Assembly: GCA_015233675.1 (NCBI GenBank) | Contig: JADFXH010000004.1 | Location: 72,492-136,491 of the forward strand | Reading direction: 5' to 3' | Length of the DNA: 64,000 nucleotides | Origin: Candidatus Omnitrophota bacterium | GTDB lineage: Bacteria > Omnitrophota > Gorgyraeia > Zapsychrales > Fredricksoniimonadaceae | Translations under genes and position numbers: made by a program | The notes under the pieces: model-generated | What the model was told of the DNA's origin: nothing | The model's database searches: none | The model's input: the letters and a program-made list of their open reading frames with translations, nothing else | Shown here: positions 18,627 through 46,448 of the stretch, in pieces | Layout: every line of letters begins with the position of its first letter | Numbering within the stretch: the stretch's first letter is position 1

Positions 18627-18664
18627 TGCAATGCCCTCCGAATTAATTAGTACAATTTAAAAAA

Positions 18665-19031
18665 GCAGTCAATAAGCCGAGTTCTGTGACCCTTGGCAGG
18701 GCGATGGCCATTCGACTAACATCCGCCTTTGGCGGATATCTTGCAGCCTACCCGAGAGTATGACGGAGCGGATCACCCCGTGTCATGGGTCCCACCTTTC
18801 GATGGAACTTGCGACTCCCCTCCTATTTGGCATTGCTCCATGCAGAGATTGCTCGTTTCACTCTCCCGTGAGGGAGCATCGTCACTGTAGCTCTGATCCT
18901 CGTCTGCCGGGCCAAAATGCTTTCGCGTTTGGCTTCGCAAGACTGTCCCGCGTTATCGGGATGCATCATCCTTTGGAGCTCGGACTTTCCTCTCCGACGC
19001 CATAAGCATCAGAGCGGCCATCCTGACCTGC
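18665..19031 (-). ncRNA. rnpB: RNase P RNA, bacterial type A
   Basis: The minus strand contains GAGGAAAGTCCGAGCTCC (P4 5' strand), GGGTAGGCTGC and ACAGAACTCGGCTTAT (P4 3' strand). The 5' GCAGGTCAGG and 3' TTGACTGC can form P1. About 367 nt; ends estimated from P1 pairing. Confidence 0.85.
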
Positions 19032-19421
19032 TTTTTTTAAAACCTGTCGAACCAGCGCATCAGCCTCTTTATTTTGTTCACGAGGCACATGCGTAATTTG
19101 AAACGACTTAAACCCTGTGACCAAATGCTTAACCTGAACAAAAAGAGGCTTTATATTCTCATGCCTGACGGCATACATGCCGCAAACTTGCCTGCACATC
19201 AATTCGCTGTCAGTTTTAATGCTGACTTCATCCGCTTTTAAAATCAACGCTTCCTGTAATGCAACAATCAACCCTGTATATTCCGCGATATTATTGGTCC
19301 CTTGGCCGATGGACATGGCCATGGTTTTGACGGTTTTCGCCCCGTTTTTAATAACCACTCCGATGGCCGCAGGTCCCGGATTCCCCAAACAGCCGCCGTC
19401 GGTAAAAATCTCCAATTTCAT
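18966..19421 (-). CDS. rnhA: Ribonuclease HI-type protein (RNase H fold); its last ~22 codons run into rnpB
   Basis: Blocks FTDGGCLGNPGPAA, NNIAEYTGLI, SIKTDSEL and NKEADAL place the DEDD residues. The C-terminal tail AGQDGRSDAYGVGEESPSSKG is encoded by the 5' part of rnpB. Confidence 0.8.
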   Translation of the reverse strand: MKLEIFTDGGCLGNPGPAAIGVVIKNGAKTVKTMAMSIGQGTNNIAEYTGLIVALQEALILKADEVSIKTDSELMCRQVCGMYAVRHENIKPLFVQVKHLVTGFKSFQITHVPREQNKEADALVRQVLKKAGQDGRSDAYGVGEESPSSKG

Positions 19422-20502: not shown

Positions 20503-23500
20503 TTAACTGGCCGCAGGAACTCTTTCTTGAACATTTAACCCAAGGAACTGCCTAAGATCCATCATCGGCTGGATATTGATGATTACCGGCACAAAGCCGG
20601 GGGCATTTTGCAGCTGCCGGAGCATGGCGGGGTCAAGGTGGAATTTGATTTCACCGCCGTTATTTTGTGTCTGCAAATTCATATTAGCCGCGGTCAAATC
20701 AATACCTCCTTTTTCAATCTTTAACATTGCCGAATCTTTTTTTGGTGTGATCGTTCCAGATAACTTAGACAAAATAAAAAATGAGGCCCATTTCATCATT
20801 TGCGAAAACTCATCATCATGTGTCCATCCGTTAAACCCCTCATCTTGCCGGGTCACAATTTTTTCTACTTTACTGCCGGACTGTTTTGCGATCTGCAATA
20901 GATGTCCAAGTTCATGAACGATAGTTTCAACCTTTTGAGAAAAGCCGCCTGCTGATGAAACTCCTTCCGCCAATGATTGATTAAGTAAAAAACGATTGTC
21001 CGAGAATAATCCCCTAAATGGAGCGTCACTTTTAGCCAACAAAACATCATCAATTCCAAAAATCTTCCCAAATTCTAATCCTATTTGTAAAAGCTGTTTC
21101 TCTGAATCCGTTTCAGGCGAAATAATCCAATCGTCAATCGGTGTAATATCAATGATTTTTAATGTTTCAGCCATGACCTCCCGTTGAATGGCGTGCTCAT
21201 CGGACATACTGTTTGCGTTCTCCATAGATCGACCGGTCGCAGCTGCCAAAGCGCTCGCAAGCCTCGGGGATACCTGCATCAATGTCTTTATTCTGCGTAA
21301 AACCAGGCTCCCCCTTTCCTTTACCCCTTTCTCATTATTAAAATCAACTTCCAGCAAAGCTAAAAACTGTTTTATCGAATTCTTTTGCAGTCCTGAAACC
21401 TCACCGTCAAACCAAGCCCGTAACGTCTCCAGTTCTTTGTTACTAACACTGGCAACCTGCGGTTGATCAAGTTCATTGTTAATACCATTAACAATATCAA
21501 ACATATGACGGCCATCTACAAAAAGAGGGTTACGGTTTTTATTAAATGCGGCATTGTAGGAAGACTTGCTTTCGAAATCTGATGATATAATCCTGTCTAT
21601 CGTAAAACTTTCATCTGAAAGATGTTTACTCATCATCGCGCGGTATATGCCCAACGCTATATACTTTTGGATAAAAGGCAAATATTCCTCTTCCTGTGCA
21701 AAACCGTTACGGCTTTCATATAGCGCCAATGGGATCTGGATGGCAATCCCCATTTTATCAACAATGCGCCGTATCCTCTGCGGAACCAGTGCTAAAAATT
21801 TCTCTTTTAAAGCAATATCTTCAACCCGTAATCCTTTTTTATCAATGATCTGGGAAGGTATTTCAGGATCATGATGTTCCCATATCCGAAAAACACCATG
21901 CTCAATCAAAACATCGTGAGCGGCATCCGGAGAAGATAAATTGGGAGCATAAAAAGCCCCTTGAAAAAGGACATCTTTGCCGGTAACCCTGACCGGCCTG
22001 ACCTGATTGTTGATCTCAAGTTCAAGTTCATCCTGATCCGTTACTGCAAATCCAGCGTTAATTTTCCAGGCTGACTCAGCGAACATTTGCTCAAGCTCAG
22101 GGATAATCGTACTTGCCTTCTTATTCCTGCGGATCATGAATCCGGTCTGTTCTTCGGCATTTCTATCCCGCCAGCCCAATTTTATCAACTTGGGCCTGCC
22201 TTGTGTGCGGTCAACCTCAACAACAAAAGAATAGACCCTTCGCTCTCCTCGAGAGACAATCTCTACGCTATCAACTCCGGCATATTGAGTAAACTTGCCT
22301 GTCCCAAAAAAACCTGCCAGCATACCCATCAGGCCTTTTTGGCCTGTATTTAAATCGTACTTATTTGATTTTCTGATCAAAAGAGCTAACTCCTGCCCAT
22401 TCGGAGCGCCGGAGCCATTGTCTTGGGCTTCTTCTACAAATTCCTTTTCTACCGGGTCAAAATAAAACTTAACCCGCATATTCCCTTTTCGTTTTGGATT
22501 TTTCTGCCTCGCTAAAACCATGGCATCCAAATAATTCTGTGCAAGTTCAGCCGCATAACCGCCTGATTCCCGCAAACCTTCTATTTTTGACCTTATATTC
22601 TGACGAATTCTCTCAACAGCCTCTCCATTCAAACTTGCTATACGGTCATGCTCTAAGGAGATGTCTTCAACCGACCGAACGCCGTTTTCAGCAGAGGAAT
22701 TCCATACATCCAGCTGGTCCAGCCAGATGCCCTCCCCGATGTTTTGCCATTCAATCTCCTGATCTTCCGTCTTAACATCCTCAGCCACCAAATCTGTCTT
22801 AGTAGTCAAAAATACCAGCAAACTGCCAAGTCTACCCAAACTCTGAAAATCATCTTTTGCAACCGCCTTTTCAATAACTTTCCAAGCTGTACCTTTAAAC
22901 GTGTCGAAAATCAATTCTAAATAATGCTCAGATGCCTCGCTGTTCATAATTCTGTTTACCTGATTGATCAAATTGTTTTTTGCAGAAACCTCTTTATTCC
23001 TTAACGTCAATTGAATTGAGCAAACAATTTTTGACAACAGAGGGTAGTCCTTCATATTTTTGGACTTAAACGATTCAATAAGCTGATAGACCGCTTTTGC
23101 TGATTCAATTGACGCAGGGCTGTCTAAAGACCAGCCGTAAGCCATTATTTTGATAATATCATTGATATCTTCCCTCGTATTGATTCCATCAACAACGGCC
23201 GCCTGTAAAAGTGTTTTAAAGAAACGATGGTAAAAATCCTCCCTCTCATGAGACTGCAAGGAAAGAATATTTTCTTCAAAAAATTCAGGCCAAAAATCTT
23301 TCAACCCTTTGTCAATTTCATGAAGCGTCTTGGCTACATCATCGACTAAAGCATCAATGGAGGAGAGCTGACTTTCAGCTGAAGTTTTACCTTCAATCAC
23401 CTGTTCCATCCTTTGCCTTAGCAGGCCATAAAAGAAATTAAATGAATCCTCATAATCTGACCGGTTTATTTGAAGAGTATCTTCGGGAACAAACTTGATA

Positions 23501-26500
23501 AGCTCTTCATATGCCGTTGAGAGCTTTTGACGCCACTCGTTTGATTTTTCAGAACTTACATTTAATCTTATCTGGAATTCTTTTGTTTGAGGTTTCAAAA
23601 AATTCCATATTTTAGCTGTGGTATCACGGCTTGCCGTTAAAATTCGGCCGTCAGTCAGAATTTGAACTGATTCAATATCAGATGAATGCCCTACAAGGGT
23701 CGCATCAACCTGCCACTCTCTTGGGCTTGTCTCCCTCCATATTTTCGATGAACCATCAGAACTTGTCGTTAAAATCCGGCCATCGGAGAGAACTTTGGCT
23801 GCACGCCCTTCAAGCGTTGCTTCTATCTGCCATTTTCCGTTTATCTCACTTACTATCCTGACTTGGATGCCATTTTTATCTTCCATCAAAATTCGGCCAT
23901 CAGGCAGTATTTGACCTGAATACCCATCAATAATCGCTTCTACCTGCCATTCTCCCGGGCTTAACTGCCTCGAAATCATCACTTCGCTGCCATCATAACT
24001 TGCTGTCAGAATCCGGCCATCAGGAAGCATCTGAGTTGGCTGTCTAAAACCTAAACGGCCTTCAAGTTTCGCCATAGCCTCCCATTTCCCCGGGATCACC
24101 TCACTCCATATTTTCACTTGGCCGCCATCAGAATTTGCCGTCAGAATGCGGCCATCGGGCTGCATTTGGGCTTTAATCCCTTCTAGGACCGCATCTATTT
24201 CCGCATCTATTTTCCATGCCCGATCCATTTTTATCCATATCATCATTTTGCCCTGAAAACTTGTCAAAATTCGGCCATCAGACAACGCTTGGGCTGAAAC
24301 CCCGTCAAGGGTCGATTCTACCTGCCACTCTCCCGGGTTTGCCTCATGCAATATTTTCGTTTTGCCAAGAAGATCCGACATCATAATTCGGCCATCGGGC
24401 AATATTTGGGCGCCATTCCCTTCAATGCGCGCTTCCAACTGCCATTCTCCTGTTTTCTCTTCTCTCCATATTCTAGTTTTGCCATCAAGACTTGATGTCA
24501 TAATCCGGCCATTAGAGAACATTTGGGCTGACTCTACCCAAACCGGACATTTAAGGGTGGCCTCCACTTTGGGTTTTGGCTCGCCCAAATTAGTCTCATT
24601 TCGTAATAAACCCAAATTAAAACTAAGCTCTCTTAACCCGTTAGCTTCCTGAAGTACAAGCGCGTCCCTTTTGATAACACCATCCTCGACACCAAAAGGC
24701 ATAGCCAGAGACCAGAATTTCTCAATCTCACGGCCATTGACTCTCAATAAAACATAACGTGTTTTCTTTCCGGTATACCTATAAAGTATATTGGTGTTGT
24801 CTCGGGCCACGAGGGTACATCTCTTTTCTTTTTCAAAATCAGCCAGTGTATAACTTCTTATATGCTCTTCAAAAGCTATCTTTTTTGGTAAGGCACTCAT
24901 GGCTGAATCCCAAATTTTAGCAGGTTCTGTTGAAGAAGAAATCCTTCCTTCCCCTCCTAATGAGTCTAAATAATCTCCTAAATCCTTAGGTAAAGTATTA
25001 TTTAATTCCAATTTCCCTAACTTACGAAATTTATATGCAACATCCTCAGCAACTATTGGCACATCTTTGAGAATATACTCCTTAACATTAATATCCTTAT
25101 AGAAATTGCCTAATTTGGCCCTCTCTCCATCGAAATTATACTTCGGATTCATCTCTTGCGGCCCGTAAGGTTTTGTCGTTACATAACTCTTTTCATCATT
25201 CCATTCCAGGAAATCCTCCTCTGCCTTCCAATTCGTTTTCACCTTTTCTTTATCTGAAGGTTCTTCTTTAACACCAAAAGCTGCATACGCTGCGGCCTCC
25301 AATTTTACTAAATCATAACTATTGGCAGTATCCTCTTCCGCAATGATCTTTATAAGCTCCAACTTCTCTTCTTTTTTCTTGTCATCTTCAGAAAGCGTAA
25401 CGATTAAATCCCCAATCTGAGACGGGACTATTACATAGCCGTCTCCCCGTACTACCGGCAAAGGTTGTGTTTTAATTATGCGCATAATATCCTCAAAATT
25501 CCGAGCCTGATATTGCTGCCAGACTTGCGGCCTAAAGGGGACTGTCAAAATCAAATTCCTTATTTTATTGCCGGAATCTTTGTCTGTTGCTTCAAGGACC
25601 ATCGGTAACACCGAAGCCCCCAAATATTCTTTTAGTTGTTTAATTTCAGCCCCTCTCCAATCAAACAAACCCTCATTTAAGAAAACAACACTTTGCCCTT
25701 GCGGCATTTGGAAATTATCAAAACCATCTCGCAATGGCAAAATAATCGCCCCTTCCTTTCGAAGATTGCTGATGAAAGATGTCATCTCTGTTTTTACAGC
25801 ATTTTTAACTTCATTAATAATATCTGTTACTGCTTTGTTCCCGGGAGCTATCCCTTCAAGCCCGCCAATCAAAGTATTGATAATTTTAACTTTTTCTTCA
25901 TTTGAATAATCATTGTGAAGTACGAGTCTAACAAGGCTCAAAACACCCTTCTTTAAGGGCTCTTCATCCTGATTTCTCTGCAAAACGATCTTGTCCCAGG
26001 AAGGAGAAACTCTAATCAGCCTTCCCAAATCAACCATCAGCTCTCCCGCCAGAATTGACGTCTTTATTACCGGATGCAAAGTAACACGTGACATGACCCT
26101 TCCATTTCTGGCAAAAATTATCGATGGCCCCATCCCTTGGGGGTCATGCACAAGGCTTGTTTTTTGTGTTTCAGCATCAATCTCCTCGGGGGTTGTCATG
26201 ACTTTGTTTTCCTTATCTCCCCCATCGACAGGTAAAAGCATCCGCGACATAATCTGTAAATCCATTCCCTTCCCAGGATCGATAACTCTAAGAATCCTTG
26301 GCTCTAAAGACACCACAATCACCGGTTCATTCTGTCTGCTTTTAGGCTCCGGAGCATTTTCATGTTTAAGATTGGCAAGACCTGCTAAAACTTTCTTATG
26401 TTCCCAGCCATTCACAAGCCTAAATTCAGAAAAGCCAAATCGAGTCCAAATTCTGGGACCTTTAACAGGAGAAAACGCATCATGAATTTCCTGCTCCAAT

Positions 26501-28410
26501 CTTTTTAAAGTTACTCCCTCTCCGTCTTGCGGGATATCCTTGCTTTTAAACACAGCGATGACCGTGCCTTGCTGTGAAAAAAGGCCTCCTGTCGCCTTTT
26601 GGAATTCTTCTTTGGTGGATTGAAATATGGCCGCCTTAAAGCCGCCTTCCTGACGGATAATGACAAGACAATACGGAGGCTTTCCCTTTTGCCTCGAAAA
26701 AACCTCTATTCTTTCTTCTGGGTTCTCCAGCCACGCAAGAATCTGTTTAACGCCCATGCCAAATTGGCCCATTTCTCCTCCGAGAGCATCAATACTGTTG
26801 GCCACCGCTTCAAGGATCGATTCAATCTTTGAGCTCCCGCTTTGATAACCAACGGTCCTGTCTAAAGCCACGTCCGGCTGGGCATCTCCTTTTATTTTTT
26901 TAATGATCTGTTCAGAATATCCAACCTGAGCTAAATGATCATAAACCCGCGTGTAATATTCATCTAAATTTTGGGTCCCCAAGCGCTCGCCTGCCTTAAG
27001 AATTCCCAGAGAAGATAAAAGCTCCTCCAGTTCAACTCTCGATAAACTCTTCAATCGTTTTTGCGCCTGTAAAAATGGAACCAAATTGAAATAGATGACA
27101 TTTTGCGGCACAGGGACCGATTCAAAGGAAACTTTAGGAGATTGGTGATTACGATTGGTATCTTGCGCTTGCTTCCCAAAACCTTTAATGGTACTGATAA
27201 TTTCTAAAGCCCGATTCTTTAAATTTGACATATCCAGCAACATGGCACGGTCCGCCACCGTCTGTATTCTCAAATAAGACGACATAGAAAAATCGAGATT
27301 CATCCCCCCGGAAAAATATTTTCGCGGAATAGTTTCCCGGGATAAAGTGTCAGTGTCTTCTTTAATATAATTGAACACGCCTCTTTTGAAGGCTTGAAGG
27401 TAACGCAGGTAAATTGTTTCGACATTGAGTGGGAAGGAATTTTCGTACCCAACTCCTGCCACTTTATTTTTATCTGCATACACCTGGGCCAGGATACTGT
27501 CCTTGATTTTCTTTTTGTACCAAGTAGCCAAAATCAATGAATTGTAAACTTGACGGAGTTTAGCAAAATTTTTGTCTTCGTTGACTTCCTTGGTCAATTC
27601 AGGGAGGACTATTTCCCGGACAATTTGAGCGCCTAAAGCGTTGATATCCTTGTTGATTGGCAAACGGTTTGTTCCCTGGGATGCTTTCAATTGCAACCCT
27701 CCATTGGTTGGCATTTGGTGCTTCTCAAGCGAAAGATAATCCTGCTCAAGCATGACTTTTAACTTCGATTCAACCACGTATGCCGTCCCTGCCTTGGCAT
27801 TCTCATAAACAACAGCCTTGTCAGGAATGATCCAAACTTTATTAAATGTGTTGACCGAAATATTGGTATTGCCGTACTTCTTGGCCGCCTGCTCATACAC
27901 CCGCCTCCAAAATCTTTTACCTACTTTATCTTCCGGATAAATTAAACTGGCTGTTATCTGCTTGAGCATATAATCTTCTGCTAAGAGATCTCTACCCATT
28001 TCCGTTAAGCCAAAACTATTAGGGATAATCCTGTCTTTCTCATAAGGAGAAAGGTTAACCCATAAATCTTTTTCCGGAATGGTAAGGCTGGCTAAAAAAT
28101 ATTTGATTAATCGGGTGGCTTCGGTTCGTAATTCTTGGTCGTCGTTGGGTTTGTTCTTCTGGGTTGCTTTCTCATTCAATGGTTCATTGGTTGGCGTATC
28201 CCCTCTGTCCAAAATAAAATCAAAACGGAAAGGGTTGTCGGTATGAAATTTAATGCCTTTTAAAATAGGAGGATCAAGCGGCGGACTTAAATGGACCATT
28301 ACCCCGGGCGCAGGCAGACGATATTCCTGGGCCTGAGCCATAGGCAGCGGCCCAAATGTATTTAACAAAAAAGCTGTCAAAATAGCTATATGAAGACATG
28401 GGGCTCTCAT
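20503..28410 (-). CDS. Giant (about 2,635-aa) signal-peptide-bearing mosaic protein: conserved N-module, degenerate GHKL-like module, WD40-like 8-blade array, canonical GHKL/Hsp90-like ATPase motifs, HExxH motif, conserved C-module
   Basis: Uninterrupted 7.9-kb ORF. The tracked start at 28425 is GTG; the ATG at 28410 gives MRAPCLHIAILTAFLLNTFGPLPMAQA|QE, a textbook Sec signal. Neither start has an SD. Motifs are located in the findings. Confidence 0.85.
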   Translation of the reverse strand: MRAPCLHIAILTAFLLNTFGPLPMAQAQEYRLPAPGVMVHLSPPLDPPILKGIKFHTDNPFRFDFILDRGDTPTNEPLNEKATQKNKPNDDQELRTEATRLIKYFLASLTIPEKDLWVNLSPYEKDRIIPNSFGLTEMGRDLLAEDYMLKQITASLIYPEDKVGKRFWRRVYEQAAKKYGNTNISVNTFNKVWIIPDKAVVYENAKAGTAYVVESKLKVMLEQDYLSLEKHQMPTNGGLQLKASQGTNRLPINKDINALGAQIVREIVLPELTKEVNEDKNFAKLRQVYNSLILATWYKKKIKDSILAQVYADKNKVAGVGYENSFPLNVETIYLRYLQAFKRGVFNYIKEDTDTLSRETIPRKYFSGGMNLDFSMSSYLRIQTVADRAMLLDMSNLKNRALEIISTIKGFGKQAQDTNRNHQSPKVSFESVPVPQNVIYFNLVPFLQAQKRLKSLSRVELEELLSSLGILKAGERLGTQNLDEYYTRVYDHLAQVGYSEQIIKKIKGDAQPDVALDRTVGYQSGSSKIESILEAVANSIDALGGEMGQFGMGVKQILAWLENPEERIEVFSRQKGKPPYCLVIIRQEGGFKAAIFQSTKEEFQKATGGLFSQQGTVIAVFKSKDIPQDGEGVTLKRLEQEIHDAFSPVKGPRIWTRFGFSEFRLVNGWEHKKVLAGLANLKHENAPEPKSRQNEPVIVVSLEPRILRVIDPGKGMDLQIMSRMLLPVDGGDKENKVMTTPEEIDAETQKTSLVHDPQGMGPSIIFARNGRVMSRVTLHPVIKTSILAGELMVDLGRLIRVSPSWDKIVLQRNQDEEPLKKGVLSLVRLVLHNDYSNEEKVKIINTLIGGLEGIAPGNKAVTDIINEVKNAVKTEMTSFISNLRKEGAIILPLRDGFDNFQMPQGQSVVFLNEGLFDWRGAEIKQLKEYLGASVLPMVLEATDKDSGNKIRNLILTVPFRPQVWQQYQARNFEDIMRIIKTQPLPVVRGDGYVIVPSQIGDLIVTLSEDDKKKEEKLELIKIIAEEDTANSYDLVKLEAAAYAAFGVKEEPSDKEKVKTNWKAEEDFLEWNDEKSYVTTKPYGPQEMNPKYNFDGERAKLGNFYKDINVKEYILKDVPIVAEDVAYKFRKLGKLELNNTLPKDLGDYLDSLGGEGRISSSTEPAKIWDSAMSALPKKIAFEEHIRSYTLADFEKEKRCTLVARDNTNILYRYTGKKTRYVLLRVNGREIEKFWSLAMPFGVEDGVIKRDALVLQEANGLRELSFNLGLLRNETNLGEPKPKVEATLKCPVWVESAQMFSNGRIMTSSLDGKTRIWREEKTGEWQLEARIEGNGAQILPDGRIMMSDLLGKTKILHEANPGEWQVESTLDGVSAQALSDGRILTSFQGKMMIWIKMDRAWKIDAEIDAVLEGIKAQMQPDGRILTANSDGGQVKIWSEVIPGKWEAMAKLEGRLGFRQPTQMLPDGRILTASYDGSEVMISRQLSPGEWQVEAIIDGYSGQILPDGRILMEDKNGIQVRIVSEINGKWQIEATLEGRAAKVLSDGRILTTSSDGSSKIWRETSPREWQVDATLVGHSSDIESVQILTDGRILTASRDTTAKIWNFLKPQTKEFQIRLNVSSEKSNEWRQKLSTAYEELIKFVPEDTLQINRSDYEDSFNFFYGLLRQRMEQVIEGKTSAESQLSSIDALVDDVAKTLHEIDKGLKDFWPEFFEENILSLQSHEREDFYHRFFKTLLQAAVVDGINTREDINDIIKIMAYGWSLDSPASIESAKAVYQLIESFKSKNMKDYPLLSKIVCSIQLTLRNKEVSAKNNLINQVNRIMNSEASEHYLELIFDTFKGTAWKVIEKAVAKDDFQSLGRLGSLLVFLTTKTDLVAEDVKTEDQEIEWQNIGEGIWLDQLDVWNSSAENGVRSVEDISLEHDRIASLNGEAVERIRQNIRSKIEGLRESGGYAAELAQNYLDAMVLARQKNPKRKGNMRVKFYFDPVEKEFVEEAQDNGSGAPNGQELALLIRKSNKYDLNTGQKGLMGMLAGFFGTGKFTQYAGVDSVEIVSRGERRVYSFVVEVDRTQGRPKLIKLGWRDRNAEEQTGFMIRRNKKASTIIPELEQMFAESAWKINAGFAVTDQDELELEINNQVRPVRVTGKDVLFQGAFYAPNLSSPDAAHDVLIEHGVFRIWEHHDPEIPSQIIDKKGLRVEDIALKEKFLALVPQRIRRIVDKMGIAIQIPLALYESRNGFAQEEEYLPFIQKYIALGIYRAMMSKHLSDESFTIDRIISSDFESKSSYNAAFNKNRNPLFVDGRHMFDIVNGINNELDQPQVASVSNKELETLRAWFDGEVSGLQKNSIKQFLALLEVDFNNEKGVKERGSLVLRRIKTLMQVSPRLASALAAATGRSMENANSMSDEHAIQREVMAETLKIIDITPIDDWIISPETDSEKQLLQIGLEFGKIFGIDDVLLAKSDAPFRGLFSDNRFLLNQSLAEGVSSAGGFSQKVETIVHELGHLLQIAKQSGSKVEKIVTRQDEGFNGWTHDDEFSQMMKWASFFILSKLSGTITPKKDSAMLKIEKGGIDLTAANMNLQTQNNGGEIKFHLDPAMLRQLQNAPGFVPVIINIQPMMDLRQFLGLNVQERVPAAS
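23599..24537 (-). repeat. Intragenic array of eight ~39-aa WD40-like units inside the giant ORF
   Basis: Eight protein-level repeats of (Q)xLxDGRILTxSxDGxxKIWxxxxPGEWQxEAxLxG. The DNA core AT(T/C)CGGCCATC recurs every 115-130 nt. Confidence 0.8.
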
Positions 28411-28543
28411 ATTACAAGTATGCACTATATATAATCTAAAAACAATGGGGACAGAGCGTTTTTGAGAAAGCGCTTCCTGAGATATTTCCGTCGATACGAA
28501 AAAATAAAGGTGATGGAATAATTTTTAATTGCCGGACTTGTCC

Positions 28544-29359: not shown

Positions 29360-30280
29360 TTAAGGCTGCTGACTTCTGTGAGTCTCCGATGTGCGGGCCG
29401 AAGCATGCTTGATCGTCCTCATCAATGCGGGATCTACAGCGTATCCTAATGCCGCGGCCTTCTGCAAATCATCCAAAGCTTTAGCATATTGTTTTAACTG
29501 ATAATAGACAACAGCCCGGTCATTATAGGCCTGCGCAATCTTAGGGTTCATTTCAATGGCAACGGTAAAATCAAATCTGGCTTGATCGAAATCATCCAGC
29601 TCAACATAAGCTTCCCCCCGATTGGCATAAGCCTCTGCGAAATTCGGGTTTAATTTAATAGCTTTACTAAAATCATTGATAGCATCAATGAACTTGTTCT
29701 GCCTATCATAAATGGTGCCGCGATTATAATATGCTTCTGCAAGTTTAGGAGCTAATTCGATACTCTTATCTAAATCTGCCATGGCTTGGGTTAAATTACC
29801 TACCTTGTACCAGGAAAGCCCCCGGTTGTGATAACTTTCTGCATATTCAGGATTTATTTTAATAGCTTCGGTAAAATCGAAAATAGCTTGAACTTCATTG
29901 CCTTGATTGGCATAACTAAAGCCGCGATTGTAATAGACACTGGCATCCCGGGGATTTAATTCAATGACCTTGTTATAATCAGCGATAGCTTGTGTAAAAT
30001 TATTCTGGCCGGCATAGGCATTGCCGCGATTATAATAGCCCTGCTCATCTTGAGGATTTATTTTAATCGTTTGAGTAAAATCTAAAATGGCTTTGGTGAA
30101 ATTTCCTTCTTTTTCAAATAGAATGCCGCGATCGTAATAAGCATCCGCAGAATTAGGATTGATCGCAATGGCCCTGTTTAAATCTTCTATGCTCGCGGGA
30201 TGATTATCAGCATAGACAACACCCAAAAAAAAGCCGAAAAAAAAAGCTGCCCCCAATAAAATAAACCGAAGAATCCTCAT
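29360..30280 (-). CDS. Secreted or membrane-anchored tetratricopeptide-repeat protein (about 8 TPR units)
   Basis: The ATG at 30280 forms an ATGA overlap with the OMF stop. N-terminal hydrophobic helix, then tandem 34-aa units of the form A.AYYNRG....G....AI.DF..AI.LNP. Confidence 0.8.
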   Translation of the reverse strand: MRILRFILLGAAFFFGFFLGVVYADNHPASIEDLNRAIAINPNSADAYYDRGILFEKEGNFTKAILDFTQTIKINPQDEQGYYNRGNAYAGQNNFTQAIADYNKVIELNPRDASVYYNRGFSYANQGNEVQAIFDFTEAIKINPEYAESYHNRGLSWYKVGNLTQAMADLDKSIELAPKLAEAYYNRGTIYDRQNKFIDAINDFSKAIKLNPNFAEAYANRGEAYVELDDFDQARFDFTVAIEMNPKIAQAYNDRAVVYYQLKQYAKALDDLQKAAALGYAVDPALMRTIKHASARTSETHRSQQP

Positions 30281-31779
30281 TGCTTGGAACTTGTCCATCC
30301 TCCACCTAAGTATTGAATAAGCAGCACACAAGCATTCATGCGTTCACCAAGAATAGTTACGGCAGTTCTTTCATTAGTTAATGCAGTCGCTTGAGTGTTA
30401 ATGACATCCAACGCGCTTACTGTCCCTGCCTTATACTGATTAGTTTCGAGCATTACGGCTTTCTGGGAATCCTTCAGCGCCTTATCCTGCACCTGTGCTT
30501 CTTGCGCCAATATACGAAGCGCAGCCAAATTATCTTCGACTTGTCCAAATGCTGTCAGCACCGTCTGACGGTATATTGCCACATCCGTATCGTACACGGC
30601 CCTGGCCTGAGCTGTCTGTGCTTTTCTTAAACCAGCGTCAAATAGGGTTCCTGCCAATGCCGGCCCCAGTGACCACAGCGGATTTGGGGAAGAAAATATA
30701 CGGGATAAATCCGAACTTTCATAACTGCCTGAGGATCCCAAGGTCAATGTTGGGAAATATGCGGATTCGGCTACGCCAATTTGGGCATTGGCCGACGCGA
30801 CTGCCCTTTCAGCGGCGGAAATGTCAGGCCTGCGTTCAAGAATTTCCGACGGGATACCGGCAGGAATGATGGGGACCGTGGTTGTTAGCGTCAGAGAAGC
30901 AATAGAAAAAACCGACGCAGGTTTACCGATGAGAACCGCGATCGCGTGTTCTAACTGGGAACGCTGTACGCTGATATCAATTGACTGAGCTTCAATCATT
31001 TCAAGCTGGGTTTGCGCTTGAATAACATCTATTTCTGCGGCAACACCACTGGCATAGCGATTTTTGGTAAGGCCTAGAAACTTTTGGTAAATAGTTTCCG
31101 AATCGTCCAGAAGCTTTTTTTGCGTATCCAAAGAACAAATCTGGAAATAATCTTGTGCTAATTCAGCTTGTGCGCTTAAACGGGCATTTTCAAGATCTGC
31201 GGCGCTCGCCTGGGCGCCGGCACGGCTCGATTCAACTGTCCTACGGATTCTACCCCACAAGTCTATTGCCCAGGAAACATCGCCATTTAATAAATTGCTG
31301 GAAACAGCATTCTTTGATGATGCGTTTTTTGATCGCGTATAAGAACCTGCAGCGCTCAAAGTTGGGAAAAAACCCGCGCGGGCCGCTTGCAGAGCCGCGC
31401 GCGCTTGGCTGTATTGAGCTTCAGCTGCCGCAATATTCTGATTTGAAATATTCAGTTGTCCTTCCAGCGCGTCTAATTTAGGGTCATTAAAAATTTTCCA
31501 CCACTCTCCTCTGATGGCATCATCTTGAGGATGAGCTATTTCCCAATCTGCTGATTCCTTATAAACCTTTGGGATCAGAGTTGTCGGCTTAACATACTTA
31601 GGGCCCACCGCACAGCCGGTTAGTAAAATAAGTAAGCATGATATAAAAATTAGGCCCCCCTCTTTTTTATAAAGAGGGGCAAGGGGGAGCTCTCTTGGGA
31701 TGATTTCAACTCCCCCTATCCCCCTCTTTAAAAGAAAGAGGGGGAAATTACTTAAAACAATTGTTCTTAGACTAAACAT
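30277..31779 (-). CDS. RND efflux outer-membrane factor lipoprotein (NodT family); start uncertain
   Basis: Lipobox LLTG|CAVGPKY, then the duplicated OMF repeat pattern. No in-frame ATG/GTG/TTG exists between the palindromes (31655-31744) and the lipobox. The first plausible start after the mdtC stop is the ATG at 31779. Confidence 0.8.
   Translation of the reverse strand: MFSLRTIVLSNFPLFLLKRGIGGVEIIPRELPLAPLYKKEGGLIFISCLLILLTGCAVGPKYVKPTTLIPKVYKESADWEIAHPQDDAIRGEWWKIFNDPKLDALEGQLNISNQNIAAAEAQYSQARAALQAARAGFFPTLSAAGSYTRSKNASSKNAVSSNLLNGDVSWAIDLWGRIRRTVESSRAGAQASAADLENARLSAQAELAQDYFQICSLDTQKKLLDDSETIYQKFLGLTKNRYASGVAAEIDVIQAQTQLEMIEAQSIDISVQRSQLEHAIAVLIGKPASVFSIASLTLTTTVPIIPAGIPSEILERRPDISAAERAVASANAQIGVAESAYFPTLTLGSSGSYESSDLSRIFSSPNPLWSLGPALAGTLFDAGLRKAQTAQARAVYDTDVAIYRQTVLTAFGQVEDNLAALRILAQEAQVQDKALKDSQKAVMLETNQYKAGTVSALDVINTQATALTNERTAVTILGERMNACVLLIQYLGGGWTSSKQ
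31655..31744. repeat. Two G/C-capped palindromes (CCCCTCTTT...AAAGAGGGG) inside the 5' end of the OMF reading frame
   Basis: 31655-31680 CCCCCCTCTTTTTTATAAAGAGGGGC and 31720-31744 CCCCCTCTTTAAAAGAAAGAGGGGG. Each can form a 9-10 bp hairpin. Confidence 0.8.
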
Positions 31780-31804
31780 GACATTGCCTTTCTTTTCAAA
31801 ACTA

Positions 31805-34800
31805 TTAATATCCTGCATTGTTCCCATAAAAAAGAGCCACTCGTTTAGACTTCTTAAAATATGTCTTCCAAATATAATACCAGCAAATGGGACTAATCAG
31901 CAGCCCCAAAACTGTTTGTAACAGATGAGCAGAAAAAAATGAATACTCAAGTATCACAAAAATAAAAAATGCCGCAATCGCAACACCTATCACTTGTGTC
32001 ATTAAATTAACTATTATGTTGGGCGTCATTGAATTTTTATTCTTATACGCCTTTATCATTTGAACAAATAAATAGATGTAAATAATACGTACTAAAATAA
32101 AGGAACATAGTGTTATTAAATCATTCAACCCAACTGATTTAAAAAGACAAATTAATAAAAAAGCTGCGCCAGCCACTATTGACCAAATTAAACCCGACCA
32201 TAAAGCTACATAATAGAAAGCCAACCAACCTCCATTCCTCAACCATTCCATAAAAAGATACACAGCCGGCGTGGTGTATAAAGTCAGCATTTGGCTGAAG
32301 ATAAGCCCGCCGATAATAGCAATACCCAACGGACGGCGCAGTTCAGAACCCATGCCCCAACCTAAGGCCAGCGGCAATGCTCCTAATATCGCCGACATGG
32401 TTGTCATCATAATGGGACGGAATCTCAAAAGACACGCCTCATAGATCGAGTCACGCGAGTTTTTCCCTTCCAAACGTTCGGCGTCAAGAGCAAAGTCCAC
32501 CATCAGAATACCATTTTTCTTGACCAGCCCGATCAAAAGTATAATCCCGATGATCGCAATGATGCTTAATTCTGTATGCGTGATAGCAAGTGCCAGCAGT
32601 GCCCCCACTCCAGCGGACGGCAAAGTCGAAAGAATGGTGATCGGATGGATATAACTTTCATACAGAATACCCAGCACAATATAAACCGCTCCCAGCGCCG
32701 TAAGGATCAAGATTCCCTCGTTGCTTAAGGAAGACTGAAATGCCTGGGCCGTACCCTGAAAACTGCCATGAATAGTCACAGGTAATAATATATTTTTCAT
32801 CGCTGAATTAACGGCCTTGACTGCATCCCCTAAAGCTACTCCCACGGGTAAATTAAACGAAAATGTGATCGCTGGAAATTGGCCTTGATGGGCGACGGCT
32901 AAAGATGTGGTCGTTGATTCATAATGGGCAAACGCGCTTAAAGGGACCAAGGCTCCCGTTGATGACTTCACATAGATATACTTCAATGTTTCAGGACGCT
33001 GCCAAAATTTTGGAGCAACTTCCATGATGACATAGTACTGATTTAATTGCTTATAAGTTGTTGACACTTCCCGCTGGCCAAAGGCATCATAAAGGGTGCT
33101 ATCTATTTCCTGGGCGGTTATCCCCATTCGTGCCGCAGTCTTGCGGTCAATCACCAAGTCGGTCTCCTGCCCTTTGTTTTGCCTATCACTGTTTAAATCG
33201 GTTATTTGAGGGAGCTTGCGCAACTGGTCTTCCACGCGCGGTGCCCATGTCAAGAGATCAGCCAAATGGTCCGCCTGAAGCGTATATTGATATTGGGCAT
33301 TACTCATTCGCCCACCCACCGTCAAGTCCTGCACGGAAGAAAGAAACGCAGGCGCACCCGGCACACTGCTAAGCTTTTTTCGCAGGCGGGCGATCACTTG
33401 GTCACTCGTGGCCTTGCGCACTTCTAAGGGCTTAAGGGCAATAAACATCCGCGCCGTGTTCCTGGTGGAACCGCCACCCGTAAAAGCAGCCAACGTATCC
33501 ACGGCAGGATCTTTCAAAACGATCTTAACCACCGCCTTTAATTTCTTTTCCATCGATTGAAATGATATGTCTTGAGAAGCCTGAATATTCCCGCTTAAAC
33601 GCCCTGTGTCTTGCTGAGGGAAAAATCCTTTGGGAACGATCGTAAACATAATAATGCTGGTTACAAGAGCGGCCAACGTCAAAATCAACATAAAACCCTG
33701 ATGCCGCAAGGTCCAGGACAAACTCTTTTCATAACTGTGGTGCATCCACTTAAACACTCCTTCAGAAGCGTTAAACAGCCGGCCATGGGGTTCTTCTTTC
33801 TTAGATTTTAAAAGAAAAGCACACATCATTGGAGTTGTCGTCAATGAAACTACCATGGAGATCAAAATGGCGACCGAAAGTGTCAGGGCAAACTCACGGA
33901 ACAAACGCCCCAAAACCCCTCCCATCAATAATATGGGAATAAATACCGCAACTAAGGAAACACTCATCGTAAGAATAGTAAAACCAATCTCTTGGGCCCC
34001 CTTAATAGCTGCATCTTTAGGGCTCATGCCTTTTTCAATATAACGTGTAATGTTTTCCACCACCACAATCGCGTCATCAACAACAAATCCGGTGGCGACT
34101 GTCAGTGCCATTAAGGAAAGATTATCCAAACTAAAATGCAAAAGGAACATGACCCCAAAAGTACTGATGATCGATACCGGGACCACAATACTGGGAATTA
34201 TGGTGGACCGTATATTACGCAAAAAGAGGAACACCACTAAAATCACCAGTATCCCTGAAATCACCACCGTTCGTTGAGCTTCTTTCATTGAAGCACGGAT
34301 CGTCGGTGAACGGTCCAGAACAACAGCCAGCTTGATTGCCGGAGGGATAGAGGCCTGAAGGCGCGGAAGTAAACTCAGGACAGCATCAACTGTTTTGATG
34401 ACATTGGCCCCCGGCTGACGAAATAATATCACCGGTATACCTTGCTTGCCGTTGATGAGGGCCGCATTACGAAGGTCGGCCACCGAATCCTGTACATCAG
34501 CCACATCTGATAACCGGACGGCCCGGCCGTTTGAGTAAGCGACGATAAGAGAACGGTACTCTTGGGCCGTATAGAGTTGATCATTAGTTTGGATTTCCCA
34601 GGTCTTCTTGCCATTACTCAGCTGTCCTTTGGGACGGTCCGCGTTAGTACTGCTGATGGCGGTGCGCACGACGTCCATGCCTATCCCATATTTATTTAAA
34701 GCCGTGGGATTAAGCTCCACCCGAACAGCTCTGGAAGCGCCTCCCCCGATAATGACTTGGCCAATGCCTTCTACCTGGGATAATTTTTGGGCTAAAATGC

Positions 34801-35278
34801 TGTCTGCTATATCGTAGATATCCGCTTTAGTCACGATATCAGATGTCAGGGATAAAATAAGGATAGGCGACTCGGATGGATTGACCTTACGGTAGGATGG
34901 ATGGATCGGAAGGTCCGCCGGCAGAAAACTTTGGGCGGCATTGATCGCCGCTTGAACATCACGGGCCGCCCCGTTAATATCACGGTTTAAATCAAACTGT
35001 AAAGTAATTCCCGTACTGCCAAGGCCGCTGCTGGAGGTCATTTCAGTAACACCGGCAATATGGGCTAGTTGACGCTCCAGCGGAGCCGCGACGGAACTAG
35101 CCATGGTTTCAGGGCTTGCACCGGGCAGGGATGCTCCGACGCTAATGGTGGGGAAATCCATCTGCGGCAAGGTAGATACCGGCAACAAACCCACGGCGAC
35201 CAGGCCGGCTAAAACTATACCCACTGTCAATAAAGTGGTGGCTATAGGCCTTCGGATAAATGGTGTTGAGATGCTCAT
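31805..35278 (-). CDS. mdtC: RND permease MdtC homolog with an extra ~140-aa C-terminal membrane extension
   Basis: Strong similarity over its whole length to E. coli MdtC as I remember it (PLERQL...[35 protein letters not shown]). The homologous part ends near ...[15 protein letters not shown] (about residue 1015), yet the ORF continues to residue 1157. Confidence 0.9.
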
Positions 35279-38200
35279 TTTGAATTACCTAAACCGAGGC
35301 GTTTGCCCAACCGGTCAAACCACAGATAAATGACCGGAGTCGTGTAAAGAGTGAGCACTTGACTGAAAATAAGACCGCCAATAATGGTAATGCCCAAAGG
35401 TTGTCTTAGCTCAGCTCCCATTCCCCCGCCAAAAGCTAAAGGCACAGCTCCCAATATTGCCGACATGGTCGTCATCATGATTGGCCTAAACCGCAAAAGA
35501 CACGCCTGGTAAATGGCATCCACGGGAGGTTTACCTTCCCCGCGCTCGGCATCCAAAGCAAAGTCCACCATCATGATGCCGTTTTTCTTGACGATGCCGA
35601 TCAACAAAATAATCCCAATCAAGGCGATAACACTCAAATCCGCACGGAAGATCAAAAGAGACAGTATGGCCCCCACACCCGCCGATGGCAGCGTCGATAA
35701 AATGGTAATGGGATGGATGTAACTTTCATATAAAACACCCAGCACTATATACACCGTGATTAAGGCGGCCAGAATCAAAAGCGGCTCGTTGGTCAAAGAT
35801 GATTGAAAAGCCTGGGCCGTGCCCTGGAATTCACCGTTAATACTGCCGGGCAATCCCATTTTTTTCGTGGTCGTCTGAATCGCCTTGACCGCCTCTCCCA
35901 GCGATGCTCCGGCTGCCAGATTAAATGATAATGTTACTGACGGGAACTGTCCCAAGTGGCTTACAATGAGAGGTCCAGTCGTTTCCTTAACCTTAGTGAT
36001 CACGTCAAGCGGCACCTGTGCACTATTGCTGCCGCGAACATAAAGATTGTGTAATTTATCAGGATTATTCTTGAAATCAGGTTTTACTTCAAGGATAACC
36101 CGATACTGGTTTAACTGAGTAAATATCGTCGACACTATCCGCTGGCCATAAGCACTATAAAGAGTATTATCAACAACAGCCGGGGATACGCCAAGCCTTG
36201 AGGCGGTTGCGCGGTCAATGACGATGGATGCCTGCAACCCTTTGTCCTGTTGGTCGCTGCCGACGTCAACCAATTGGGGCAGACGGCTTAGGGCATCCAC
36301 AACCTTCGGCGCCCAGGCATTGAGTTCGTCGGCATTAGGATCTTCCAGGGTATACTGATATTGTGTACGGCTGACCGTATCATCAACAGTCAGGTCCTGA
36401 ACCGGCTGCATGTACAGTGTTACCCCTTTAACATCCGTTAATTTTTTCTGCAAACGGCGGATAATATCGCTGGCAGAAATTTTACGCTCTTCGATGGGCT
36501 TGAGATTGATCAGGATCCTGCCGCTATTAAGGGTGGTATTAGTGCCGTCCACTCCGATAAACGTGGAAAGATTCTCAACAGCGGGGTCTTTAAGGATAAC
36601 CGCTGCCAACTGCTGCTGCTTTTGTGCCATAGCCGGGAAAGAGATTGACTGAGAAGCCTCGGAAATGCCCTGGATAATACCGGTGTCCTGGATAGGAAAA
36701 AATCCTTTAGGAATAAAAACATACAATACTACCGTAAAAACCAGTGTTCCCGCAGCTATGCCCAAGGTCAACCCTTGACGCTTCAATACCCATTGCAAGG
36801 ATTGACCGTATAACTTAATGACCTTATTAAACATTGCTTCAGACGCATGGTAAAACTTCCCTTGTTGACTAGGCGGTTTGTTTTTGAGTAATTTAGCGCA
36901 CATCATTGGCGTCAAAGTCAGCGACACAATCGCTGAAATAACAATGGTGACGCCAAGAGTAATGGCAAATTCGCGAAACAGCCTCCCTACCACATCCCCC
37001 ATAAACAATAATGGAATAAGCACCGCGATAAGGGAAATACTCAAAGAAAGGATGGTGAATGCCACTTGCCCTGAACCTTTAAGGGCGGCTTCGAGAGGGG
37101 CATCACCTTGTTCAATATATCTGGAAATATTTTCAATCATCACAATCGCGTCATCAACCACAAAACCCGTCGCTATAGTCAACGCCATCAAAGACAAATT
37201 ATTAAGGCTGAAGCCCAGCAGATACATGACGCCAAAAGTCCCGACTAACGATACCGGGACCGCGATGCTGGGAATGATCGTCGAGGCCAAAGTACGCAAA
37301 AACAGGAACATGACCATCACCACAAGGGCCACAGATAACATCAATTCAAACTGAACGTCCTTGACCGAGGAACGGATGGTTGTAGTCCTATCTGTCAATA
37401 TGGATACCTGCACAGATGCGGGCAGGGAATTTTCTAACTGCGGCAGCATCTTTTTAATTCCGTCAACAACCTGAATGACATTAAATCCGGGCTGTCGTTG
37501 AATATTAATAATCACCGCAGGTGACGTGCTCATCCAGGCCGCCTGCTTGACATTTTCTGCGTCGTCAATGATTTGGGCGACATCAGATAATAATACCGGG
37601 GCCCCATTTTGGAATGCAACAACTAAGGAACGGTAATCTCTGCTTGATTTAAGCTGGTCATTAGCGTTGATGATGGAAGACTGACGCGTCCCATCAAAAC
37701 TACCCTTGGCTTGATTGACATTGGCACTGGAGATAGCCGTACGCAAATCTTCCAATGTCAAACCATAAGACGCCAATGCCGTCGGATTAGCTTGGATGCG
37801 CACAGCGGGCCGTTGTCCACCGCTGATGCTGACTAAGCCAACCCCTGATAGCTGAGAGATTTTTTGGGCCAGTCGGGTATCTGCCAGGTCTTCAACCTGC
37901 GGCAAAGGCAGAATTTTTGAAGTCAAAGCCAAAGTCAAGATCGGAGCGTCCGCCGGGTTGACCTTGCTGTAAACCGGAGGGCTGGGGAGGTCCGCCGGCA
38001 ATAAATTGGCACCTGCATTAACAGCCGCTTGCACTTCCTGTTCGGCTATGTCAATGCTTAAATCCAAACTAAATTGCAAAGTGATAACTGAACTGCCGCC
38101 GGAGGAAGTCGAACGCATTTGCTTAAGACCGGGCATTTGCCCAAACTGACGTTCCAGGGGAGCGGTAATGGCTGTCGTCATGACTTCAGGAGAAGCTCCG

Positions 38201-38379
38201 GGATAAAAAGTAACCACTTGAATGACAGGGTAATCAACCTGCGGTAAAGCTGAGATGGGAAGTTGAAAATAAGAGACACCGCCGGCTAAAAGAATAGCAA
38301 CCATCAACAAGACAGTTGCCACCGGCCGCATAATAAATATGCGGGAAGGATTCAATGTTCCGTGTTCCTTTGGGGTCAT
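35275..38379 (-). CDS. mdtB: RND permease MdtB homolog
   Basis: 1034 aa. [22 protein letters not shown]...[27 protein letters not shown] is almost colinear with E. coli MdtB. ATGA overlap with mdtC. Confidence 0.92.
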
Positions 38380-38388
38380 AAGATTGCT

Positions 38389-39582
38389 TTATTGCGAAGG
38401 GTTTATCGATTTCACGCGATGATTATGCCCGGCCACGGTGACCTTGCTGCCTTCTTTTAATTTGTCGGCCCCTTCCACCACCACGACGTCACCCGCCGAC
38501 AATCCATCCTTGATTGCCACGTTGTCTTCCTGGGCGCTCCCTAACGTAACCGGTCGCACTGTGACGGTCTGGTTGTCTTTGACCAGAAAAACAAATGATC
38601 CTTGAGGCCCCTGCTGGATCGCGGCCACCGGAATAATTACAACCCCTTGATCAACATTGACCAATAAATGAATGTTAACGAACTGGTTGGGGAACAAGGC
38701 ATTATCGGTATTCTCAAAAACAGCCTTGAGCTTGACCGTCCCTGTGGCGGGATCGATTTGGCTGTCAACAGCAAGCAGTAAACCCGTCGCTATTTTCTTT
38801 GTTTCCTCACGATTATAAGCATCCGTTTGCAATTTGTCGCCCTTTTTAAGTTTCTCGAGCACCTGCGGAAGACTGTCCTCAGGAATAGCAAAAACGACAG
38901 TAATAGGCTGCAATTTGGTGATCACCGCCAATCCGGTTGCATCGTTTGTCGAGACAATATTCCCGGAATCCTCCAGACGCAGCCCTATTTGTCCGCTGAT
39001 CGGAGCCGTAACACGCGCGTAGGTCAACTGCAATTTAGCATTGTTGACCTGGGCCTCATCTACCCCCACTGTCCCTTCATACTGATGCACCAAAGCGTTC
39101 TGGGTATCCAGTTGTTGTTTTGGGATGGAATCCTGGGTCCACAAGACCTGGTAACGCGCCAAGTTTAATTTAGCATCATCAAGCAACGCCTGATCATGAG
39201 CCAGTTGTCCTTGCGCTAAGGCTTGCTGTATCTTAAATGGCCGATTATCAATTTCCGCTAATAAATCACCCTGCTTGACAATTTGACCTTCTTTGAACAA
39301 CACTTTCATCAACTGCCCGCCAACAAGATACTTGACCGTGACCGTGTTAAAAGCGCTGACAGATCCCAAAGCGTTAATATAGTTGTTAATATCACCTTTT
39401 TTTGCCTTCGCTGTAACAATAGGCGAGTCGCTGGGCATACGAGCACTTGATTTGCCCCAGTTCTGCTTGCCACTTTGAGATGGATTGTCGGATACTTGGG
39501 ATTGCTTAGGCAAGAATTTATAAATACCAAAAACTGCCAGACAGATGATCAATAAAAACCATATCCATTTCCCGGAAGCCAT
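38389..39582 (-). CDS. mdtA: RND membrane fusion protein (MdtA-like)
   Basis: N-terminal TM anchor, then barrel-sandwich, hairpin and beta-barrel blocks typical of HlyD/MFP proteins. The ATG at 39582 has a GAAGGGA SD; the tracked start at 39612 is GTG. Confidence 0.85.
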
Positions 39583-39624
39583 AATTATCCCTTCGGAATT
39601 AATACTCTTCACAAACGTTTTTTA

Positions 39625-40017: not shown

Positions 40018-40077
40018 ATTATATTCTCCTTTTTTATTATAAATATGATGATTTCTATATATTTTCTAAGGGATATA

Positions 40078-40641: not shown

Positions 40642-40744
40642 ATTCCCCCCCTGTTTTAGTTGCTTTAGAATTCGCCTTTTCATTTATTTAGACAATAAAT
40701 AAATGAAAAAAGTTCCTCTTTAAGAAATAAAGCAACTGTCCCTT

Positions 40745-42142: not shown

Positions 42143-42143
42143 T

Positions 42144-45266: not shown

Positions 45267-45279
45267 GATTGATTGCCTC

Positions 45280-46404: not shown

Positions 46405-46448
46405 TATTCCCTCTTTTTTCGTCATTCCCGTTAAAGCTGGAATTTATT

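Follow-up and report, generated by a model that had tools for sequence, protein, structure and literature searches.

A divergent Hsp90/sacsin-branch GHKL module in a family of giant, predicted-exported Omnitrophota proteins

ATPases of the GHKL type act as dimers that close over their N-terminal domains, and they carry a mobile ATP lid between two of their motifs, the G1 and G2 boxes. The described proteins closest to the one considered here are the Hsp90 chaperones (Hsp82/Hsc82, human Hsp90, Grp94, TRAP1 and HtpG) and sacsin, a giant chain that carries three Hsp90-like ATPase modules (PMC3710099). The subject of this report is a 2,640-residue protein encoded on the minus strand of a 64,000-nucleotide stretch of DNA (the window) from a Candidatus Omnitrophota bacterium (GenBank assembly GCA_015233675.1, contig JADFXH010000004.1, positions 72,492 to 136,491). 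Judged from sequence comparison and a structure model, residues ~1938-2296 of this protein, here termed R2, are a divergent GHKL module of the Hsp90/sacsin branch, in which a Bergerat domain for nucleotide binding is joined to the initial alpha/beta portion of an Hsp90-type middle domain.

The Omnitrophota, ultra-small bacteria that have not been cultured, are suspected of living as predators or in dependence on hosts, a way of life that their giant proteins are presumed to mediate. According to the available text of two preprints, HATPase_c (PF02518, the histidine-kinase type) occurs frequently in the long proteins of this phylum (West-Roberts et al., 2023, preprint; 2026 complete-genome preprint). 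The window protein resembles the giant proteins in that text: it comes from the same phylum, is very long and mostly unannotated, and has an ATP-dependent domain whose extracellular prediction is implausible. The proteins in that text are, however, at least 10,000 residues long and carry PF02518, whereas the window family measures 2-8 thousand residues and is of Hsp90 type. Neither the R2 family nor an arrangement in which R2 is accompanied by a second GHKL-like module (R1) and a module with an HExxH motif was found described in the available text of either preprint. Literature searches pairing Omnitroph* with sacsin, or HATPase_c_3 with secreted, also found nothing. New here is the detection of a hitherto unannotated ATPase family of Hsp90/sacsin type, specific to giant Omnitrophota proteins of middle size. 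The fixed partnership of R2 with the motif-scrambled R1 and the HExxH module, behind a predicted signal peptide, is likewise newly recognised. For at least about 100 distinct giant proteins of Omnitrophota, almost all of them annotated as hypothetical, it gives a first clue to function.

Motif triad, family and predicted fold of R2

The original prediction, made from the sequence alone, had picked out an N box, a G1 box and a G2 box in canonical order and spacing (Table 1). The coordinates it gave are exact when counted from the GTG start; an ATG at position 28410 (residue 6) is the likelier start, which shifts the numbering by 5 and changes nothing else. From N box to G1 the distance is 42 residues and from G1 to G2 it is 36, as compared with 46 and 39 in yeast Hsp82. 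Searched with a loosely spaced regular expression for the ordered triad, the real protein gave one match and 20,000 residue shuffles gave none, the single motifs being expected by chance 0.09, 0.69 and 0.79 times per shuffle. The motif-triad observation is confirmed.

An exhaustive HMMER search of 1.84 billion representative proteins (cutoff E ≤ 0.001) recovered 96 homologous representatives, of which 55 reached E ≤ 1e-30; almost all are 2,000-7,700 residues long. Common to them is a module of ~360 residues, equivalent to residues ~1940-2300 of the window protein. A word-indexed search of 5.8 billion proteins returned a single 262-residue fragment, whether started from one sequence or from an alignment; it seems that giant proteins are poorly represented in that route or are removed by its filters. 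An exact-sequence look-up across contigs gave no record of the protein. Orthologues of 66-80% identity are present in Omnitrophota metagenome-assembled genomes (MAGs). The three orthologous loci in GTDB genomes and the named homologues all derive from Candidatus Omnitrophota/Omnitrophica, apart from one Planctomycetales-labelled and one Nitrospirota-labelled MAG record. Most homologues are annotated as 'hypothetical protein' and one as 'ATP-binding protein', while NCBI names another a 'SpoIIE family protein phosphatase'.

When 61 homologous modules are aligned, few columns are better conserved than those of the motif residues. In the N box, E1960 is conserved at 97%, Q1963 at 98%, N1964 at 100% and D1967 at 90%. 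The corresponding values are 98% for D2002, 92% for G2004 and 100% for G2006 in G1, and 100% for G2038, 94% for F2040, 98% for G2041 and 100% for G2043 in G2. An arginine further downstream, R2239, is conserved at 100% across the family.

Profile searches started from the window sequence and from its family gave different pictures. Against Pfam the whole protein matched no GHKL model, its sole match being one WD40 repeat; it matched neither Pfam SACS nor the sacsin N-terminal ATP-binding-like model of NCBIfam (NF047352), and phmmer against PDB sequences returned nothing meaningful. The only NCBIfam match was the 'HSP90 family protein' model, at E = 0.04 with the whole protein and 0.003 with the module, in the correct profile positions. 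A profile built from 30 family modules (alignment A1) matched Hsp90 N-terminal domains in the PDB at E = 2.4e-7. It gave 136 matches at E ≤ 10, and the 60 of them that were listed are all Hsp90-family chaperones. In these alignments the N box, G1, the lid segment and G2 pair residue for residue with Hsp90. By hhalign, A1 matched yeast Hsp82 with 96% probability (E = 2e-9); the Hsp82 sequence used is presumably the correct one, and its N-terminal part agrees with the PDB alignments. A relaxed hhalign run placed TGFMIRR on the Hsp82 segment GRGTILRL (G3) at low confidence.

The same 30 modules were also scanned member by member. In Pfam, HATPase_c_3 was matched by 9 of the 30 (best E = 4.5e-7), SACS by three (0.02) and HATPase_c by one (E = 0.085). 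In NCBIfam, NF047352 was reached by 17 of the 30 (best 5.9e-6), 'HSP90 family protein' by seven (best 2.9e-8), HtpG by two and a sensor kinase model by one, weakly (E = 0.03). The HATPase_c, HATPase_c_3 and sacsin profiles suggested in the original prediction are thus matched by relatives, while the window sequence has no Pfam GHKL match of its own. The original prediction had also held that the lack of a significant GHKL profile hit would speak against it; read literally, that lack applies to the window sequence alone and not to the family profile. GHKL homology is visible only through the family profile and the fold, beyond what scans with the window sequence itself detect.

An AlphaFold2 model of R2 computed with A1 as the alignment reached a pLDDT of 84 and a pTM of 0.83. 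Apart from its last 14 residues, the model is disordered only at its residues 83-102, in the G1-G2 loop, which lies in the 31-residue segment at the position of the ATP lid. Foldseek against the PDB gave 446 matches at E ≤ 0.001, and the 50 listed are all GHKL proteins. The top 34 comprise 33 full-length Hsp90, Grp94 or TRAP1 structures and one lower-TM ParC-ParE model at rank 29, with a best E of 1e-14 and TMq values of 0.58-0.60 for cytosolic Hsp90/Grp94 and 0.53-0.54 for TRAP1. Topo VI-B and ParE come next, at TMq 0.37-0.52. Because the alignments to full-length Hsp90 span 385-420 columns, R2 is taken to cover the Hsp90 N-domain and the first part of the middle domain. The Bergerat alpha/beta sandwich expected of such an ATPase is predicted in the model, and the profile, hhalign and Foldseek matches agree with this assignment.

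The assignment to the Hsp90/sacsin/MORC branch rather than to histidine kinases also holds, HATPase_c_3 and NF047352 being reached by 9 and 17 of the 30 members and HATPase_c by one. Neither Pfam nor NCBIfam found a His-phosphotransfer domain, as had been stated. R2 has the defining sequence and fold features of a GHKL protein with two exceptions, namely a G3 threonine replaced by methionine and curated-profile significance that appears only in relatives. The most fitting description is that of a new family, deeply diverged, within the Hsp90/sacsin branch.

The Hsp90 family provides the best sequence-profile and fold matches of R2. R2 shares with it the N box, G1, lid and G2 in the same order and spacing, then a G3-like strand placed at low confidence, followed by a middle-domain segment in which an invariant arginine aligns, at low confidence, with the position of the catalytic arginine. 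R2 differs from Hsp90 in that it shows only ~15% identity to it, lacks a MEEVD tail, and lies 1,900 residues deep in a 2,640-residue chain that is led by a predicted signal peptide and continues into an HExxH module. The window protein is like sacsin in being a giant chain with, probably, more than one Hsp90-like ATPase module. The matches to sacsin models are weak (the best being that of NF047352) and none comes from the window sequence. Pfam and NCBIfam found no DnaJ, HEPN or ubiquitin-like domain in the 2,640 residues, unlike sacsin. Moreover, sacsin is cytosolic whereas the window protein begins with a predicted signal peptide, and in its second module, R1, the motifs follow another order. 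A bacterial giant chain that combines several Hsp90-like modules may also serve as a simpler comparison for sacsin, a human ataxia protein.

With GHKL proteins of the MORC/paraMORC/MutL type R2 shares HATPase_c_3 (PF13589), the Pfam model that members reach, and a lysine after the G2 box, which we take to be a MORC-type trait. It differs in that, in the fold search, Hsp90 N-terminal plus middle-domain folds (TMq 0.53-0.60) rank above the S5-transducer GHKL proteins Topo VI-B and ParE. PADLOC gave no defence-system match, and the window neighbourhood holds no restriction-modification or defence genes; R2 is not a recognisable defence GHKL.

The chassis around R2

Across 97 homologues (the 96 representatives and the fragment P0001) the order of parts is predicted signal peptide, N domain, R1, variable insert, R2, HExxH module and C-terminal tail. 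Table 1 gives their positions in the window protein.

Table 1. Parts and motifs of the giant protein, with positions in the window; residues are counted from the GTG start
Feature	Residues	Positions	Strand	Remarks
Giant open reading frame	1-2640	20503-28425	minus	2640 aa; GTG start at 28425, no internal stop; carries all modules
Predicted Sec-type signal peptide	1-32	28330-28425	minus	MRAPCLHIAILTAFLLNTFGPLPMAQA, then cleavage before QE; hydropathy heuristic
Conserved N-terminal domain	~33-400	27226-28329	minus	LPAPGVMVHLSPP...NPFRFDFILDRGD; starts right after signal peptide
R1, aberrant GHKL-like module	492-1005	25411-26952	minus	Motif order N box, G2, G3, G1
R1 N box	E539..N543..D546A	26785-26811	minus	
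R1 G2	G553QFGMG	26752-26769	minus	
R1 G3	G620T	26563-26568	minus	
R1 G1	D716PGKGM	26263-26280	minus	
Insert with about eight WD40-like 'DGRILT' repeats	~1290-1620	23566-24558	minus	From translation
R2, predicted Hsp90/sacsin-type GHKL ATPase module	1938-2296	21538-22614	minus	N-terminal domain and proximal middle domain
N box	E1960-LAQN-YLDA	22522-22548	minus	Catalytic Glu, Mg-binding Asn, Asp; aligned with Hsp82 E33/N37/D40
G1 box	D2002-NGSG	22408-22422	minus	Adenine-binding Asp; aligned with Hsp82 D79-SGIG
Lid motif	ALLIRKSNK	22360-22386	minus	Family consensus ALLIPKSTK; aligned with Hsp90 lid segment IAKSGTKA
G2 box	G2038-FFGTG	22297-22314	minus	22294-22314 with the following K; phosphate-binding glycine loop; aligned with Hsp82 G118-QFGVGF
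G3-like strand	T2094-GFMIRR	22126-22146	minus	Family consensus GVTVRRIK; G2095 97%, R2099 92% conserved
Invariant Arg in IQIPLxLxxxR	R2239	21709-21711	minus	Candidate counterpart of Hsp82 R380
C module, zincin-like motif	2297-2562	20740-21537	minus	H2504-E-x-x-H2508 (HELGH) at 20902-20916, H2536 at 20818-20820
C-terminal tail	2556-2640	20506-20760	minus	...GGIDL...GFVPVIINIQPMMDLRQFLGL...; reads ...GGIDL...PVIINIQP...FLGL

The N-terminal domain is common to 20 of the 97 homologues, with E values down to 1e-144, and matches nothing in Pfam or NCBIfam. The insert between R1 and R2 varies from 524 to 3,093 residues. In the window protein it contains WD40-like repeats of ~40 residues each with the signature 'DGRILT...KIW', of which only the last reaches Pfam WD40 (residues 1575-1608, E = 7.5e-11); this region is shared, weakly, by the closest orthologue only. 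Directly after R2, at a median gap of 38 residues, the HExxH module follows in 35 of 35 proteins. Its H2504, E and H2508 and the downstream H2536 are invariant among homologues. It gave no significant Pfam or PDB match, and because only scattered matches to various zincin families at E > 0.01 were obtained, it was not placed in a peptidase family. The C-terminal tail of ~85 residues has at least 125 homologues, all shorter than 150 residues among those listed, where the sole source-named one is from Candidatus Omnitrophica. Many of the giant family members finish in this tail as well, which may be a phylum-specific sorting or anchoring tag.

R1 is common to 54 of the 97 homologues and lies upstream of R2 in all 47 proteins for which both were found. 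Its motifs are 88-100% conserved in 39 homologues, in an order that departs from the usual GHKL sequence of N, G1, G2 and G3. Pfam detected no GHKL model in residues 501-800 even at E ≤ 10, and direct BLAST found no similarity to R2; the kinship of the two modules appears only at the profile level (hhalign probability 81%). The R1 G1 strand matches HtpG at E = 0.0035. An AlphaFold model of R1 has a pLDDT of 83, and its best Foldseek match is Hsc82 at E = 1.8e-4 with a TM of only 0.27; further Hsp90 chains and Topo VI-B come after it. When residues 695-755 were moved in silico between the N box and G2, the hhalign probability rose from 49% to 94% against R2 and from 15% to 84% against Hsp82. 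Control moves of segments without the G1 motif gave 9-69%, with one outlier at 84%. R1 is read from these comparisons as a probable rearranged GHKL module.

The original prediction had called the protein exported, and this stands as a prediction. By a simple hydropathy criterion, which was used as a heuristic for signals and membrane helices alike, the N-terminal signal is the only strongly hydrophobic segment, and the rest of the protein holds nothing of membrane-helix grade. The N-terminus is laid out as in cleaved Sec signals (n-h-c), with a positive residue, a hydrophobic core and then A-Q-A. A signal-like N-terminus was seen in 38 of 53 full-length members, 32 of which have no transmembrane helix before R2. 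Export is thus predicted family-wide on heuristic grounds. A conserved ATPase behind a signal peptide sharpens the puzzle, already on record for Omnitrophota, of ATP-dependent domains predicted outside the cell, and a single excisable module of ~370 residues makes that puzzle testable.

Proposed mechanism and rival explanations

R2 is probably an active ATPase, as the residue classes needed for ATP turnover in Hsp90 suggest: E1960, N1964, D2002, the lid hinges G2038/G2041/G2043, the lid K-S-x-K and R2239 are all near-invariant. By analogy with Hsp90 and other GHKL proteins, ATP would bind R2 under the mobile lid (residues ~2007-2037), and the N-domains would then dimerise as in the established Hsp90/GHKL cycle. 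Hydrolysis would occur only once the middle-domain arginine had docked onto the gamma-phosphate and completed the active site, and would reset R2 as a conformational clamp. R2239 is the probable equivalent of the Hsp90 catalytic arginine R380, judging from its invariance and alignment. Since GHKL ATPases work as dimers, the two modules bracket the insert and the HExxH module follows R2, it is proposed that R2 could pair either with R1 in cis or with the R2 of a second chain. Such pairing might open and close around the variable insert, as in a clamp or remodelling machine, or might gate the adjacent HExxH module. If the protein is exported, its ATPase would work only where ATP is present, most plausibly, though speculatively, in or on a host or prey cell.

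Several observations weigh against an Hsp90-type ATPase with this mechanism. The excised residues 1901-2260 matched nothing in Pfam even at E ≤ 10, and the window sequence scores 16 bits with the NCBIfam HSP90 model (PRK14083 / PRK05218), for which the cutoff is 455 bits. No Hsp90 C-terminal dimerisation domain was found after residue 2296, either with the HExxH-module profile against the PDB or with the members against Pfam. Given the lack of that domain and the low score, R2 falls outside the Hsp90 family in the strict sense. The G3-strand threonine is present in 76% of the family and is methionine in the window protein. The placement of R2239 on R380, in the Hsp82 motif LPLNLSR, comes from a low-confidence stretch of the relaxed hhalign alignment. 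Pairing of R1 with R2 is speculative, an analogy with GHKL dimers set against the negative BLAST comparison of the two modules. To our knowledge, bacteria have no ATP outside the cytoplasm. The predicted export therefore conflicts with the strong conservation of ATP-hydrolysis residues, there being no obvious ATP source outside the cytoplasm. With these points taken into account, the best explanation as a whole is still probably a divergent Hsp90/sacsin-branch ATPase module that forms a fixed element of an Omnitrophota-specific chassis.

The conflict over ATP would be removed if the protein were not exported at all. An uncleaved N-terminal tether, or a misleading topology, would leave its bulk, with both GHKL modules, in the cytoplasm, where it would act on a membrane tether as a chaperone of Hsp90/sacsin kind or as a regulatory machine. 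ATP must be at hand for an active ATPase, one homologue (P0012) carries an HD domain of cytoplasmic type, and the NCBI names 'SpoIIE family protein phosphatase' and 'ATP-binding protein' among the homologues fit a cytoplasmic location. The published discussion points the same way: in the available text, most domains of Omnitrophota giant proteins are predicted to be extracellular and some of these localisations "seem highly unlikely" (West-Roberts et al., 2023, preprint), while many long Omnitrophota proteins are read as membrane-anchored with a cytoplasmic bulk (2026 complete-genome preprint). The n-h-c layout is nevertheless that of a cleaved Sec signal, and the positive-inside rule puts the chain that follows a single N-terminal helix with a positive n-region on the outside. 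The C-terminal tail, found also in the small proteins, looks like a sorting tag. A cytoplasmic location is thus possible but doubtful.

Another way out of the conflict is that R2 keeps the GHKL fold without hydrolysing ATP, as a pseudo-ATPase outside the cell that serves as a structural or ligand-binding domain or scaffold, perhaps for another nucleotide or a small molecule. Predicted export into a space without ATP, the methionine in G3 and the missing dimerisation domain are all compatible with such a role, and the sister module R1 shows that the family tolerates drastic remodelling of the fold. Pseudo-enzymes, however, usually lose the residues that serve catalysis only, and in R2 these are the most conserved ones, namely the general-base glutamate, the Mg-binding asparagine and the middle-domain arginine. 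A pseudo-ATPase is accordingly unlikely.

A more elaborate extension of the mechanism, to which little credence is given, would make the protein an exported effector or surface machine with its own ATP-driven clamp. R2 and the permuted R1, on either side of a swappable cargo region, would close as an intramolecular pseudo-heterodimer once a prey or host cell had been touched or entered and ATP had become available, and would unfold, present or release cargo together with the HExxH peptidase. If this were true, the protein would represent a new class of self-chaperoning, self-processing secreted proteins, and in R1 it would contain the first Bergerat fold known to us to have been rearranged in nature (non-circularly permuted).

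It is very improbable that R2 is the CA domain of a sensor histidine kinase or of a related GHKL-fold protein kinase, and this candidate was rejected. Long Omnitrophota proteins are reported to carry PF02518 frequently in the available preprint text (West-Roberts et al., 2023, preprint; 2026 complete-genome preprint), and single members reach HATPase_c and a sensor kinase model. Yet Pfam and NCBIfam found no HisKA/DHp or HPt domain anywhere in the protein, the top sequence and fold matches are of Hsp90 type, the model includes a middle domain of Hsp90 type, and the lid (K-S-x-T-K) and G2 (GxFGxGxxT) motifs resemble those of Hsp90. That the three motifs came together by accident in so long a chain, with no GHKL domain present, is hardly credible: the window sequence does lack a Pfam match, and each motif alone can be expected 0.1-0.8 times in 2,640 residues, but the ordered triad never arose in the shuffles, the motifs are 90-100% conserved, and the significant profile, profile-profile and fold matches to Hsp90 refute this reading.

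Genomic surroundings

The giant gene appears to stand alone. Its neighbours in the window include tRNA-Met, tRNA-Val, an RNase P RNA, an RNase H-like gene, YebC, RuvC, RuvA, a TPR protein and RND efflux genes. These neighbours are not conserved between the window and the three orthologous loci (L001-L003), and no partner gene was found.

Two features of the surroundings may be recorded in their own right. The RNase P RNA (bacterial class A, 151.6 bits), at 18657-19035 on the minus strand, overlaps the last ~70 nucleotides of the RNase H-like open reading frame that lies upstream of it, at 18966-19421 on the same strand. Either the 3′ end of the reading frame or the 5′ end of the RNA is shared, or the RNase H-like reading frame has been called too long. 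Upstream of the giant gene, a row of large RND-type efflux genes extends over 30277-46425 on the minus strand, an arrangement that is not conserved next to the orthologues. The row includes an AcrB-family reading frame of 1157 residues and an outer-membrane efflux protein of 516 residues; four further reading frames, recorded here by size, are found in the same stretch, two of 1034 and 1040 residues and two of adaptor size.

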